From: Chloropicon primus
Lineage: Eukaryota
NCBI GenBank assembly: GCA_023205875.1
Contig: CP060768.1
Coordinates: forward strand, 124,001-188,000
Reading direction: 5' to 3'
Length of the DNA stretch: 64,000 nt
Shown here: one piece after another, positions 44,794-60,890 of the stretch
Layout of the letters: each line of letters starts with the position of its first letter
Position numbering within the stretch: position 1 is the stretch's first letter
Translations under genes and position numbers: made by a program
Notes under the pieces: generated by a model
What the model was told of the DNA's origin: nothing
Seen by the model: only the letters and a program-made list of their open reading frames with translations
The model's database searches: none

Positions 44794-45607
44794 AGCCAGG
44801 ATGGAGGGCAGAGGAGGGACTTCAAACCATGTTTAGGAACGATTAAAAGGCGTTTGCCGGAAAGAAACTTGGTTCAATCGATACAACAGGTCTCTTGAGC
44901 TTGAGATCGAACCCAACATTGCCTTGTCTCCTTGGCATCTTCTGGAAACAGCACCAGCACCAGCATCGAGAACACCAGCCAGGATTGAGGGCAGAGGAGG
45001 GACTTCAAACCAAGTTTAGGAACGATTAAAAGGCGTTTACCGGAAAGAAACTTGGTTCAATCGATACAACAGGTCTCTTGAGCTTGAGATCGAACCCAAC
45101 ATTGCCTTGTCTCCTTGGCATCTTCTGGAAACAGCACCAGCACCAGCATCGAGAACACCAGCCAGGATTGAGGGCAGAGGAGGGACTTCAAACCAAGTTT
45201 AGGAACGATTAAAAGGCGTTTACCGGAAAGAAACTTGGTTCAATCGATACAACAGGTCTCTTGAGCTTGAGATCGAACTCAACATTGCCTTGTCTCCTTG
45301 GCATCTTCTGGAAACAGCACCAGCACCAGCATCGAGAACACCAGCCAGGATTGAGGGCAGAGGAGGGACTTCAAACCAAGTTTAGGAACGATTAAAAGGC
45401 GTTTGCCGGAAAGAAACTTGGTTCAATCGATACAACAGGTCTCTTGAGCTTGAGATCGAACCCAACATTGCCTTGTCTCCTTGGCATCTTCTGGAAACAG
45501 CACCAGCACCAGCATCGAGAACACCAGCCAGGATTGAGGGCAGAGGAGGGACTTCAAACCAAGTTTAGGAACGATTAAAAGGCGTTTACCGGAAAGAAAC
45601 TCGGTTC
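44794..45607. repeat. 183-bp tandem repeat, about 4.4 near-identical copies
   Basis: gggacttcaaacc recurs at 44816, 44999, 45182, 45365 and 45548. Confidence 0.95.
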
Positions 45608-56599: not shown

Positions 56600-56789
56600 G
56601 CAGGGGACCCCAACCAACAACAACAACAACAACAACATTTGACACATTACTCGCAACAATATCTTTGTAGTAGTAAGGAACGCAACACATTTTTAACAAA
56701 AACCCGGCAGAACAACACTCACAGACAGACAGAGAGAGGGGGGGGGGAGCGCAAGCCACTTCCTTCCTCCTCCTCCTCCTTCCCTGGGC

Positions 56790-57165
56790 CCATTCGAAGA
56801 CAGTTGGGGTGATCGTTGATGACAGCCCTCAGAACAAGCGTCCACTCATCGTCCCCATCGAGACCGGAGTCGAGCTCAATATTACCGAACTTCAACAGCA
56901 CACGAAGGCAGTCGTAGCTGCAACGGTCCACGCTTTCGTGGGCGGCTTCCAACGCATACGAGACGCCAACCTTGACCATCTTCTCAAGATGGTCGGGCAT
57001 GTCAAACATTGCCAAAATGCGTAAGGACGAATCCCATCCGCCTATGTATGTGCGTGAGCGGGCATCAAATGAGGGTGAGAGAGCGAGTGCGACCCATTCC
57101 TCAAGCAACTCACGAATAACACGCCCCCTCCAGGGCTTCCAAACACCAGAAGAGGGGGGTGTCAT
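56790..57165 (-). pseudogene. Truncated ankyrin-like ORF translationally coupled (ATGA overlap) to the upstream repeat-nuclease gene
   Basis: SYDCLRVLLKFG and TLVLRAVINDHPNCLRM ankyrin-like segments. The ORF then runs into host low-complexity (cct)n sequence. Confidence 0.55.
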
Positions 57166-60100
57166 GCATCAATCATGGCAATCATGGCCTCGTGTTTCCT
57201 TTTCTTGTTCCGCAGCGAAACAAGCAGCTGGTGCGCTGCGCCCTCGTCGCTGCACGCCTTCAGCTTGGCGGCGAGCGTGCCGATCATGTTCATCAACTTC
57301 GCGTTCTCCTTGTTTAACACGGTCCGCAACTCTTTGACGGGATCCAATCCCAGGACCGACAGAGCGTCCCCGCATGCGACTACCGCGTCCACAAACCCAG
57401 GCTTCAACATGCGCGACGCGAAGGCGTTCGAACCCGCTATCAGCACGCCGCCTTTGCCGACCATCTGCTCGAGCTCTTCAAGCACGGCGTAAAGTGCCTC
57501 GGGATCGTCGAACTTCGCCGCAACGCTATTGCAAACAAAGGTCTGGAGATTCTTGATACCGAAGCGCGTCCTCAGCGTGTCGAGCACGGCGTAGAGCGCG
57601 TCGGGATCGTCGAACTTCGCCGCAACGCTGTTATTCACAAAGGTGATACCGAAGCGCGTCCTCAAAGTGTCCAGCACGGCGTAGAGCGCTGCGGGATCGT
57701 CAAACCTCGCCGCAACGCCTCCTGAAACAAAGGTTTGGAGACTCTTGATGCCAAAGCGCGTCCTCAAAGTGTCCAGCACGGCGTAGAGCGCTGCGGGATC
57801 GTCAAACCTCGCCGCAACGCTGTCTGAAACAAAGGTTTGGAGACTCTTGATGCCGAAGCGCGTCCTCAAAGTGTCGAGCACGGCGTAGAGCGCGTCGGGA
57901 TCGTCAAACCTCGCCGCAACGCCTCCTGAAACAAAGGTTTGGAGACTCTTGATGCCAAAGCGCGTCCTCAAAGTGTCCAGCACGGCGTAGAGCGCGTCGG
58001 GATCGTCAAACCTCGCCGCAACGCTGTCTGAAACAAAGGTCTGGAGACTCTTGATGCCGAAGCGCGTCCTCAAAGTGTCGAGCACGGCGTAGAGCGCTGC
58101 GGGATCGTCAAACCTCGCCGCAACGCTGTCTGAAACAAAGGTCTGGAGACTCTTGATACCGAAGCGCGTCCTCAAAGTGTCGAGCACGGCGTAGAGCGCG
58201 TCGGGATCGTCAAACTTCGCCGCAACGCCATCACAAACGAAGGTCTGGAGACTCTTGATACCGAAGCGCGTCCTCAGCGTGTCGAGCACGGCGTAGAGCG
58301 CGTCGGGATCGTCAAACTTTGCCGCAACGCCACCACAAACGAAGGTCTGGAGACTCTTGATACCGAAGCGCGTCCTCAGCGTGTCGAGCACGGCGTAGAG
58401 CGCGTCGGGATCGTCAGACCTCGCCGCAACGCCACCACAAACGAAGGTCTGGAGACTCTTGATACCGAAGCGCGTCCTCAGCGTGTCGAGCACGGCGTAG
58501 AGCGCGTCGGGATCGTCAAACCTCGCCGCAACGCCACCACAAACGAAGGTCTGGAGACTCTTGATACCGAAGCGCGTCCTCAGCGTGTCGAGCACGGCGT
58601 AGAGCGCGTCGGGATCGTCAAACTTCGCCGCAACGCCATCACAAACGAAGGTCTGGAGACTCTTGATACCGAAGCGCGTCCTCAGCGTGTCGAGCACGGC
58701 GTAGAGCGCGTCGGGATCGTCAAACTTCGCCGCAACGCCATCACAAACGAAGGTCTGGAGACTCTTGATGCCGAAGCGCGTCCTCAAAGTGTTGAGCACG
58801 GCGTAGAGCGCGTCGGGATCGTCAAACTTCGCCGCAACGCTGTCACAAACGAAGGTCTGGAGACTCTTGATGCCGAAGCGCGTCCTCAGCGTGTCGAGCA
58901 CGGCGTAGAGCGCGTCGGGATCGTCAAACTTCGCCGCAACGCCATCACAAACGAAGGTCTGGAGACTCTTGATACCGAAGCGCGTCCTCAGCGTGTCGAG
59001 CACGGCGTAGAGCGCGTCGGGATCGTCAAACTTCGCCGCAACGCCTCCTGAAACAAAGGTTTGGAGACTCTTGATGCCGAAGCGCGTCCTCAAAGTGTCG
59101 AGCACGGCGTAGAGCGCTGCGGGATCGTCAAACCTCGCCGCAACGCTGTCTGAAACAAAGGTTTGGAGACTCTTGATGCCGAAGCGCGTCCTCAAAGTGT
59201 CGAGCACGGCGTAGAGCGCTGCGGGATCGTCAAACCTCGCCGCAACGCTGTCTGAAACAAAGGTTTGGAGACTCTTGATGCCGAAGCGCGTCCTCAAAGT
59301 GTCGAGCACGGCGTAGAGCGCTGCGGGATCGTCAAACCTCGCCGCAACGCTGTCTGAAACAAAGGTTTGGAGACTCTTGATGCCGAAGCGCGTCCTCAAA
59401 GTGTCGAGCACGGCGTAGAGCGCTGCGGGATCGTCAAACCTCGCCGCAACGCTGTCTGAAACAAAGGTTTGGAGACTCTTGATGCCGAAGCGCGTCCTCA
59501 AAGTGTCGAGCACGGCGTAGAGCGCGTCGGGATCGTCAAACCTCGCCGCAACGCTGTCTGAAACAAAGGTCTGGAGACTCTTGATGCCGAAGCGCGTCTT
59601 GAGCGCCGTGAGGATGTCAAAGAGTTTCTCCGGATCGTCGAACTTTGCAGCGACGCCGCCGCAGACAAACGTGCCCAAGTTGGTTATGCCGAACTTGGGA
59701 TCTTGCAACCCTTTGATGCTTTTCTCGAAGGCTCCCGTCAGGACACGCGAAGGCACTCCGGGGGTGGCCATGAGCTTTCGCGCCAGGTCGAGATCACCAC
59801 CCACGAGCGTCGCGACGCGCTGCTCGGCGGCTTCAAACTCCTTGCTCATGCGCGCCCACACGTCCGCGGCGGCATCGTTGGCGGCGGCGTTGTCATGGTT
59901 GCTGCTCGGGCACGCCTTGGTCGCTGCAGCACCGCCTTGATGGATGCGCTGCGCGACGGCGGTCACAGCAGCTGACGCGGCAACGTTCGGTAATTGCGAC
60001 TCGGTGACGACGACGAGCACGTTGTCCCCCCACTGCGAAAGCTGCTCGAAGTGTGCGGCGCCCACGCGCAAGCGGACCACGAACGCGTCAGGGAACATTT

Positions 60101-60446
60101 CGCGGAGCTTGGTCGTCTTGCGTTGGTCGCGTCCCACGTCGGAGTCGCCGTGCGTGAAGCCCGGGTCGTACTCGAACAGCACTTCCGTGCCATTCGTGAG
60201 CTTGAAGAACGCATCGGTGTTGTGGTGGGTCTTGCCTTCCGTCAGGTGCTTCGCGAGCGAGCGCCCGGTCACGCCCTGCTCAAGCAAGCCGTTCTCAAAC
60301 AACAGCTGCGCCACATGCGCGACGTGACGTGTCTCGGCCTTGGACGCGCCGATCGGAGACGGCACGTCGTAGTCGTCGACACGGCGGCGTTTGCTCGGCG
60401 GCGCGTCCGACGCCATGACGCGCACCTCGAACGCGACCCTTTCCAT
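57162..60446 (-). CDS. TALE-like 34-aa tandem-repeat protein with N-terminal Vsr/DUF559-like endonuclease domain and NLS motifs
   Basis: Intronless 1094-aa ORF: PPSKRRRV; SKAE...TDAFF...VLFEYDPGFTHG...RDQRK...VVRLR; 22 repeats of FGIKSLQTFV[xxx]VAA(R/K)FDDP(D/A)ALYAVLDTLRTR; C-terminal KKRK. Confidence 0.85.
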   Translation of the reverse strand: MERVAFEVRVMASDAPPSKRRRVDDYDVPSPIGASKAETRHVAHVAQLLFENGLLEQGVTGRSLAKHLTEGKTHHNTDAFFKLTNGTEVLFEYDPGFTHGDSDVGRDQRKTTKLREMFPDAFVVRLRVGAAHFEQLSQWGDNVLVVVTESQLPNVAASAAVTAVAQRIHQGGAAATKACPSSNHDNAAANDAAADVWARMSKEFEAAEQRVATLVGGDLDLARKLMATPGVPSRVLTGAFEKSIKGLQDPKFGITNLGTFVCGGVAAKFDDPEKLFDILTALKTRFGIKSLQTFVSDSVAARFDDPDALYAVLDTLRTRFGIKSLQTFVSDSVAARFDDPAALYAVLDTLRTRFGIKSLQTFVSDSVAARFDDPAALYAVLDTLRTRFGIKSLQTFVSDSVAARFDDPAALYAVLDTLRTRFGIKSLQTFVSDSVAARFDDPAALYAVLDTLRTRFGIKSLQTFVSGGVAAKFDDPDALYAVLDTLRTRFGIKSLQTFVCDGVAAKFDDPDALYAVLDTLRTRFGIKSLQTFVCDSVAAKFDDPDALYAVLNTLRTRFGIKSLQTFVCDGVAAKFDDPDALYAVLDTLRTRFGIKSLQTFVCDGVAAKFDDPDALYAVLDTLRTRFGIKSLQTFVCGGVAARFDDPDALYAVLDTLRTRFGIKSLQTFVCGGVAARSDDPDALYAVLDTLRTRFGIKSLQTFVCGGVAAKFDDPDALYAVLDTLRTRFGIKSLQTFVCDGVAAKFDDPDALYAVLDTLRTRFGIKSLQTFVSDSVAARFDDPAALYAVLDTLRTRFGIKSLQTFVSDSVAARFDDPDALYAVLDTLRTRFGIKSLQTFVSGGVAARFDDPDALYAVLDTLRTRFGIKSLQTFVSDSVAARFDDPAALYAVLDTLRTRFGIKSLQTFVSGGVAARFDDPAALYAVLDTLRTRFGITFVNNSVAAKFDDPDALYAVLDTLRTRFGIKNLQTFVCNSVAAKFDDPEALYAVLEELEQMVGKGGVLIAGSNAFASRMLKPGFVDAVVACGDALSVLGLDPVKELRTVLNKENAKLMNMIGTLAAKLKACSDEGAAHQLLVSLRNKKRKHEAMIAMIDA
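57480..59693 (-). repeat. Coding tandem array of 22 x 102-bp units (one 90-bp unit)
   Basis: Period of 102 bp checked (gatcgtcaaa at 59429 and 59531); the unit near 57627 lacks KSLQ (12 bp). Confidence 0.97.
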
Positions 60447-60890
60447 ATGAATTATGAATTAATTTCCAGCTCACCTTAACATTCAATACGTAACGTCCCC
60501 GCTGTCCACGCAAAACAGAAACAACCTACTCGCGGGGGGAACCTCCTTCTTCTTCGCGACGGACGACGGAGGGAGGCAGAGGGAGGGAGGGAGGGCGGTG
60601 AAAAACGAAACCTTGTCTCTTGCTCTTTCGATTGATACCTCGGTCGACAGGTTTGGCGTCCGGAGTCGTTCGCGGGAGCTGGCCAAGGAAGATATTTTCT
60701 TAGGCTTGAGCTTGGAAGGCCTACCTCCGCTCGAGAGGGTCAGGGGCGTCGCGACTCGCGAGGCTTAAGGGCTTCCTTCAGTCGGCGGGCCACGAAGGGT
60801 TCGCTCGCTTGCCCTCTGCAGGTCCCGCGGCCACCTTGCCGGGCGCGACGGGGGACGACGACGGGTGAACCTTGGACGGAGAGAGAGAGG

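Follow-up and report, generated by a model that had tools for sequence, protein, structure and literature searches.

What would a protein do that carries nuclease motifs at one end and a long array of near-identical helical repeats behind them, and how did it come to stand in an algal genome? The question is raised by an open reading frame (ORF) of Chloropicon primus, found in a stretch of 64,000 nucleotides of contig CP060768.1 (assembly GCA_023205875.1, positions 124,001 to 188,000 of the forward strand), hereafter called the window. The ORF occupies 57162..60446 of the window on the minus strand and codes for 1094 amino acids counted from the first ATG; its product will be referred to as P0001. 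From its sequence and modelled structure, P0001 is probably a nuclear, repeat-programmed DNA nuclease of likely viral origin, which would nick or cut DNA beside the site bound by its array. Its head domain is a new member of the Vsr/EDxHD-type nucleases, and the whole protein defines an undescribed family in which a nuclease is joined to coded repeats.

A preliminary description, made from the letters alone, had read an ordered set of Vsr/DUF559/EDxHD motifs in the stretch 60063-60347 (minus strand), which corresponds to residues 34-128 of P0001. Every residue that it named is present at the number given, namely S35, E38, D78, E92, D94, P95, H99, R106, D107, K110, R125 and R127, and by sequence such a set is far beyond chance. 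It had also suggested that the catalytic residues are retained, and this extends to the family: E38, D78, E92, D94, H99, D107 and K110 are all kept in 91 of the 93 homologs that cover the seven positions. Conservation was counted in the 112 carriers of the head domain among 161 fetched proteins; the profile that gathered these homologs itself contains the motif residues, so that the counts are biased toward proteins that keep them. By residue, S35 is found in 88/90, E38 in 93/94, D78 in 109/110, E or D at position 92 in 110/112, D94 in 112/112, H99 in 112/112, D107 in 111/111, K110 in 109/111, and R125 and R127 in 110/111 each. The proline at position 95, where glycine is usual, had been called atypical. 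This view had to be given up: position 95 is G in 50, P in 29, E in 14 and D in 8 of the 112 homologs, and since P is a common variant in the family it is not a sign of decay. In two homologs, P0111 and P0150, the head reads QFD or QFDG in place of EYD with the H and D retained, and these represent a divergent nuclease subtype.

According to the accessible text of PMC3239194, the active sites of Vsr and I-Bth0305I are formed by E25/E170, D51/D196, H64/N208, H69/H213 and D97/D222, respectively, with an additional acidic residue at the position of Vsr F62. Residues E38, D78, E92, D94, H99 and D107 of P0001 fit this site by order and spacing, not by residue-level superposition, and the shared order can be written as E...D...E-x-(D/N/H)-x4-H-x7/8-D. 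The spacing of five residues between D94 and H99 equals that of H64-H69 in Vsr and of N208-H213 in I-Bth0305I, while the spacing from H to D is eight versus nine.

The head was modelled with AlphaFold2 as part of a two-domain fragment, on an alignment of 114 sequences (predicted local distance difference test, pLDDT, 91.5; predicted template modelling score, pTM, 0.82). A model made from the single sequence was unusable (pLDDT 48). The model places the motif residues on a helix, a strand, a strand-loop, a helix and a strand, in the order that the preliminary description had drawn from the letters. Residues 7-152 of the fragment match many restriction-endonuclease-like chains, among them Vsr (1cw0; Z 5.9, root mean square deviation (rmsd) 3.6, 102 residues aligned), I-Bth0305I (3r3p; Z 5.6, rmsd 3.6, 94 aligned of 98) and NGO0050 (3hrl; Z 5.7, rmsd 3.1, 91 aligned of 94). 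Further matches are Bax1 (Z 7.9) and Can2/Card1 (Z 6.6-7.5). The head is thus confidently modelled with a restriction-endonuclease-like fold. The language-model neighbours of residues 25-175 are the PvuRts1I-N and DUF559 clusters (0.92-0.93, with only 136-154 features in common). Residue order and spacing, these neighbours and the fold matches together uphold the Vsr/DUF559/EDxHD assignment.

The preliminary description would have been refuted had profile and structure searches found no restriction-endonuclease-like fold. Such a fold was found, with matches to Vsr, I-Bth0305I and NGO0050; curated profiles do not recognise the domain. The isolated head has no match in Pfam, NCBIfam, PHROGs or the PDB sequences, and none of the curated Pfam models DUF559, Vsr and MTES_1575 matches the domain of the window. 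The homolog P0022 matches MTES_1575 under the cut-off (E=2.9e-4), as does one of 27 members checked (E=0.028). Matches of the whole of P0001 in Pfam and NCBIfam were inflated by the repeats and were rejected, as no stretch passed. We regard the assignment of the head as secure as a modelled fold and a motif; the activity is predicted from conservation.

The repeat array behind the head has 22 repeats, with twenty spacings of 34 amino acids and one unit of 30, and each unit is modelled as three helices. At the DNA level a tandem-repeat scan (Tandem Repeats Finder) gave a period of 102 with 19.2 copies and 96% matches. The variable loop of the repeats reads [C/S/N]-[D/G/N]-[G/S]. Seven amino acid positions vary in the 19 core units: three adjacent loop residues (S/C, D/G and S/G), one R/K, one D/A and two singletons. 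Across 35 arrays of at least four units each, the mean difference within an array reaches 0.64 at one position and does not exceed 0.34 at any of the other 29. This hypervariable residue is D in 81, N in 71, G in 68, S in 8 and another residue in 5 of 233 motifs from 82 proteins, the next residue being left unconstrained. Spacings of 33-36 dominate across the family (248 of the spacings listed), and the model places the variable residue in a loop that follows the first helix. Array length and unit order differ between close relatives; unit order is kept in 9/10 members of one 90% cluster, and other clusters show differences of single units. The near-identical relatives P0003-P0005, P0009-P0013 and P0170 have 3-5 repeats in differing orders, some of them with a long unrelated N-terminal extension, and these reordered arrays point to rapid reshuffling.

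The alphabet of the variable residue resembles that of TALEs, in which D, G, N and S are base-specifying residues of the established code. When the variable residue is numbered 13, G14 and L29 are each found in 73% and L7 in 80% of 51 distinct 34-residue units, and this L7 presumably falls at the place of V7 in TALEs. The accessible text of PMC4787788 states that position 13 sets the specificity of TALEs and that G14 and L29 are conserved in TALE-likes. The family shares with the TALEs and TALE-likes (Bats/BurrH, RipTALs, MOrTL, STAR) tandem, near-identical 34-residue units and one hypervariable loop residue drawn from D, G, N and S. The residues G14 and L29 fall in register, and the model matches at Z 6-7.3 (dHax3 up to Z 7.3, given without a residue-level register; BurrH Z 6.5, rmsd 3.3 over 143 residues). 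The family differs in that sequence homology is not detectable, the unit is modelled with three helices instead of two, and enzyme heads are present; the natural TALE-likes in the accessible text of PMC11417379 and PMC4787788 carry no nuclease. With the mTERF and pTERF proteins the family would share the three-helix repeats seen in the model, and its best structural matches are to mTERF chains (Z 7.2-8.8, rmsd 4.5-6.0; MTERF4 Z 8.3, mTERF1 Z 7.3). Pfam mTERF (PF02536) is matched by 4 of the 114 aligned members, whereas P0001 has no such match, and near-identical units with one hypervariable residue and a nuclease are found here. The mTERF and pTERF proteins are organellar or bacterial, while this family appears to be nuclear or viral. 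The pTERFs are tandem and possibly reprogrammable in the accessible text of PMC11417379, whose STAR, MOON and pTERF families differ from this one. The modelled repeat fold lies between mTERF and TALE, and on present evidence the array would work like that of a TALE, without being classed as one.

As in the EDxHD homing endonucleases, the nuclease is joined to a modular, repeated binding region. Those enzymes carry the nuclease at the C-terminus behind N-terminal NUMOD repeats and reside in introns or inteins; P0001 differs in all of these respects, having an N-terminal nuclease and a helical array of 33-36-residue units and lying in the window outside any intron or intein, and its family occurs in eukaryotes and their giant viruses. 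Engineered TALENs are likewise a repeat array with a nuclease of PD-(D/E)xK fold. P0001 is natural, its nuclease is N-terminal and of Vsr type rather than FokI, and its activity is predicted. The fusion of a Vsr-like domain to TAL repeats is proposed in the accessible text of PMC3239194.

Word-based searches returned 6 and 11 homologs. When 1.84 billion representatives were searched with a profile, 322 matched at E<=0.001, of which 176 remained at 1e-10 and 58 at 1e-30. Sequences were taken for the best 150 of the 322. The family, counted as the 176 clusters at E<1e-10, has no Pfam model. Of 30 proteins checked by name most come from metagenomes; the named members include a protein of Emiliania huxleyi virus 84, an environmental Megaviridae protein and proteins of Tribonema minus. 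In a viral structure library the model gave four matches at E<=0.001, the Megaviridae protein among them. One homolog lies on a virus-like contig (L002) where a nonamer, which we take to be a coccolithovirus promoter element, stands upstream of genes in 20 copies on the plus strand and 6 on the minus strand, one of them directly before the homolog. The same contig has paralogous small HMG-box-like ORFs. Another homolog (L004) is surrounded by kinase, short-chain dehydrogenase and GIY-YIG genes. A giant-virus metagenome-assembled genome, found with P0022, holds a broken homolog (L005, 1061-1572) in which the nuclease core can be read through stops and a frame change, with no repeat array behind it. 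No locus came up in IMG/VR for the window protein, A1, P0018, P0028 or P0111, nor in prokaryotic genomes with one search pattern. A quick tree of the nuclease (105 rows, 147 columns) was poorly resolved, and no donor is inferred from it.

The two halves of the protein are found in other combinations. Among ten long members that do not match the nuclease profile, seven have another head with YPP/FPP- and HPS-like motifs, which we assume to be of uracil-DNA-glycosylase type, though Pfam did not confirm it. In P0050, P0054, P0065, P0112, P0121, P0126 and P0142 the family repeats stand behind such a YPP/FPP and HPS/HAS head, and P0054 and P0065 are Tribonema minus proteins. These members could be natural, repeat-targeted base-excision enzymes. 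The same repeats behind a different enzyme-like head are as expected for a portable targeting module. P0097, P0099 and P0157 combine the nuclease head with repeats of other types, either units with an MG-[D/G/N/S]-SF loop or repeats that pass Pfam mTERF, a series that suggests a gradual transition between mTERF and coded repeats.

The gene of P0001 lies in a 3644-bp segment that was found in more than one genomic context of one sample. The assembly graph branches between 56791 and 56792 in runs X1 and X4 (DNA, one sample, possibly the one that the window comes from), where two contigs join the shared sequence, and the shared contig has a depth of 440 and 466 against 106 and 158 for the window flank. 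Such depths would agree with roughly three copies if the X4 assembly dropped the window branch as a tip; contig depth does not equal copy number. The opposite boundary is at 60435, 19 nt upstream of Met11: there X4 and X6 have contigs that diverge from the window, and the X2 sequence ends. The copy in the other context is near-identical, with 0-1 differences across the nuclease part (X4, X6). The left junction is spanned by an X2 contig and the right junction is supported by X1 alone: words of 60436-60530 occur only in X1, and the stretch is uncovered in X2, X4 and X6, which proves nothing. Repeat scans found no terminal repeats, terminal inverted repeats or target-site duplication at the segment. 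Its CpG observed/expected ratio is 1.45, against 0.70-1.01 in the other 32 ORFs above 250 amino acids, and the non-repeat part is high too. An ankyrin-like ORF (Pfam Ank_4 at E=0.025, under the cut-off) is severed after roughly 125 codons, where the segment ends, and then continues into host sequence. Because a near-identical segment occurs in more than one context, the ankyrin-like ORF is truncated and the CpG content is unusual, we take the window copy to be foreign DNA that was inserted recently. The nuclease part is covered by contigs of three runs, from three studies, guessed to be RNA; the X6 contig enters the other flank, and this coverage is thus not specific to the window copy.

In the mechanism that we propose, the basic leader would mediate nuclear import. 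Of 40 homologs, 15 have an NLS-like (nuclear localization signal-like) motif in the leader, where shuffling predicts 1.9; of 61 long members, 18 have one in the C-terminal 40 residues, where 7.3 would be expected. The enrichment in the leaders supports a nuclear role. The array would then wrap double-stranded DNA as the TALE and mTERF solenoids do, and about one base would be read per repeat through the hypervariable loop residue, with D, G and N possibly reading C, T and a purine as in TALEs. The head would nick beside the bound site, with Mg held at D78, E92 and D107 and with H99 as the base; alternatively, it may cut both strands as a dimer in the manner of I-Bth0305I. Through repair of the break the gene might spread between the genomes of giant viruses and algae, behaving as a selfish endonuclease gene that stands free. 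This last step, taken on its own, is doubtful and the least supported of all. A bolder form of the proposal is just as tentative: giant algal viruses and their hosts would possess natural TALENs, with mTERF-like repeats under a TALE code, interchangeable heads of Vsr type or glycosylase-like, and arrays that are retargeted by shuffling, and the window copy would have entered at a site that its own product had cut.

If so, a target of the array may be present at the junctions of the segment. The array was read with D as C, G as T and N as a purine, its N-terminus at the 5' end, over 22 units in the order given by the assembly, which is unverified. The best matches in the window, on both strands, reach 17/22 at three sites and 16/22 at eleven. 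One of the weak candidates flanks the segment at the left junction, and a partial one at the right (Table 1). Of 3838 pseudo-junctions outside ORFs, 2.5% attain the full score that was observed and 1.7% attain both scores. Among 24 relabelled codes the TALE code comes out first at the junction (empirical p 0.015-0.025); with an assignment free of any code, or with the orientation reversed, the result was weaker than with the TALE code. We take the match as a weak lead and not as proof.

Several observations speak against a programmed nuclease with TALE-like reading. The junction match concerns one locus in C/T-rich intergenic DNA, with the 30-nt window and the sub-array chosen post hoc, and the array of the L002 homolog has no match at its own gene ends in the same test. 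The head Z scores of 5.6-7.9 are middling and unrelated alpha/beta folds score alike; Foldseek with the two-domain model found no PDB match at E<=0.001. The Z values of the repeats all fall within the range that the tool calls common for repeats, and the three-helix units fare a little better against mTERF than against TALE. P0001 has no match to Pfam TAL_effector, which is also absent from the list of 25 families obtained for 114 members, a repeat-only profile retrieved no TALE chain, dTale2 was matched at only E=0.98, and a language-model TAL_effector neighbour (0.77) is a lead only. The alphabet has no clear reader of A. Many members have 2-4 repeats, and the 112 head-domain carriers show at least one, two and four motifs in 67, 52 and 21 cases. 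The residues on either side of the hypervariable one vary too (0.32-0.33), so that the code may be different or degenerate. Alternatively, the nuclease might be active while the repeats bind DNA in the mTERF manner, in a solenoid whose base contacts are few or spread out and with no one-repeat-one-base code, the loop variation being drift and gene conversion on a loop that tolerates it. The best repeat matches are indeed mTERF folds (Z 8.3-8.8), and of the few members that match Pfam mTERF, P0157 scores 93.5 bits and P0099 32.4 bits (cut-off 23.1). The repeats of P0157 are in register with the family units, a circular comparison as P0157 is itself in A2. In addition, D, G, N and S are common helix-capping residues. 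We nevertheless hold this explanation to be unlikely, since diversity is concentrated at one position, unit order is kept in nearly all members of one 90% cluster with single-unit differences in other clusters, and the divergent repeats of P0097 and P0099 use the same small alphabet.

An enzyme that acts on RNA, like the RAP-domain OPR and FASTK proteins, would combine repeats that read RNA with a PD-(D/E)xK-like head that cuts it. Such proteins do share helical repeats and a domain of this kind; RAP-containing chains were matched in fold (FASTKD4 9gek, Z 6.5; 9g6k, Z 5.7), profile matches to RAP were weak (E 0.71 and 0.95), and MTERF4 and an algal mitoribosomal mTERF-like chain stand in RNA complexes by the titles of their structures. 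The preliminary description had pointed out that RAP/OPR pairing is normally C-terminal and organellar, and P0001 departs from this: its head is N-terminal and retains the full Vsr-type His/Asp set, no RAP Pfam match is present, the enriched leaders are basic and NLS-like and do not resemble transit peptides, and the distribution is viral. The other head found with these repeats, moreover, has motifs like those of a DNA glycosylase, without confirmation by Pfam. An RNA-directed enzyme is therefore very improbable. We give as little credence to a programmable nuclease that serves as a weapon, of a virus against its host or a rival virus, or of a host copy against a virus, with the window copy a passive duplication from an endogenous viral region. 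The L002 homolog is preceded by the same nonamer as its neighbours, like an ordinary viral gene, and the segment truncates a neighbouring gene and is without terminal repeats or a target-site duplication; however, the molecular mechanism is that of the programmed nuclease and only the role differs, and the weak target match at the junctions and the near-identical extra copy lean toward recent, self-linked movement. The programmed nuclear DNA nuclease thus remains the reading that we prefer.

The window is a eukaryotic nuclear stretch, because of the genes that neighbour P0001, identified by Pfam as a bifunctional-nuclease gene, a RINGv gene and an EPL1 gene, and because of splicing and a poly(A) end in nearby RNA-type contigs. 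P0001 stands free between two host genes, with the nuclease N-terminal and the helical array behind it. Its first four codons fall outside the duplicated segment (boundary 60435). Upstream of the RINGv gene, several X4 and X6 contigs share only the stretch 60615-60668 and then pass into unrelated sequence; this may be a short element or a promoter motif repeated in the genome. Elsewhere in the window, a 183-bp unit is repeated in tandem at 44794-45607 (4.4 copies, 98% matches), and an 83-bp unit is found at 1-250.

Table 1 Features of the P0001 locus, in positions of the window.
Feature	Position	Strand	Basis or remark
Duplicated segment, 3644 bp	56792..60435		Assembly graph, contigs; more than one genomic context of one sample
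Probable true start of P0001, Met11	60416	-	Homolog P0008 begins at the matching Met
Basic NLS-like leader PPSKRRRV, residues 16-23	60378..60401	-	Sequence
Predicted Vsr/EDxHD-type PD-(D/E)xK nuclease domain, about residues 29-174	59925..60362	-	Alignment, model, neighbours, PMC3239194
Predicted catalytic codon E38	60333-60335	-	
Predicted catalytic codon D78	60213-60215	-	
Predicted catalytic codon E92	60171-60173	-	
Predicted catalytic codon D94	60165-60167	-	
Predicted catalytic codon H99	60150-60152	-	
Predicted catalytic codon D107	60126-60128	-	
Predicted catalytic codon K110	60117-60119	-	
Helical linker or degenerate pre-repeats, conserved, about residues 175-251	59694..59924	-	Alignment, model helices
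Array of 22 repeats	57462..59693	-	Tandem-repeat scan, unit list, modelled secondary structure
Conserved C-terminal cap with terminal basic motif RNKKRKH (57192-57212)	57165..57461	-	Aligned in P0006-P0015
Ankyrin-like ORF downstream of P0001	56719..57165	-	ATG overlaps the P0001 stop codon
Left-flank candidate target, weak	56768..56789	+	16/22 repeats fit by the TALE code; stops 2 nt short of the junction
Right-flank candidate target, weak	60437..60450	+	12/14 for repeats 9-22; starts 1 nt past the junction

No natural protein that joins an array of single-residue-coded repeats to a nuclease turned up in the searches made. A literature search, with most subscription journals outside its reach, found no description of this family, and the accessible text of PMC5472282 is without the terms looked for. 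Testing the prediction would cost little, as a target can be read from the array. If the code is real, the family would provide a new scaffold for programmable DNA binding that has no sequence relationship to TALEs; it would come in hundreds of natural variants, with nuclease and glycosylase-like heads ready-made. The relationship of TALEs and mTERFs, whether by shared origin or by convergence, would become testable, and a retargetable nuclease, selfish or employed in conflict, would be added to the biology of giant viruses, the coccolithoviruses included.

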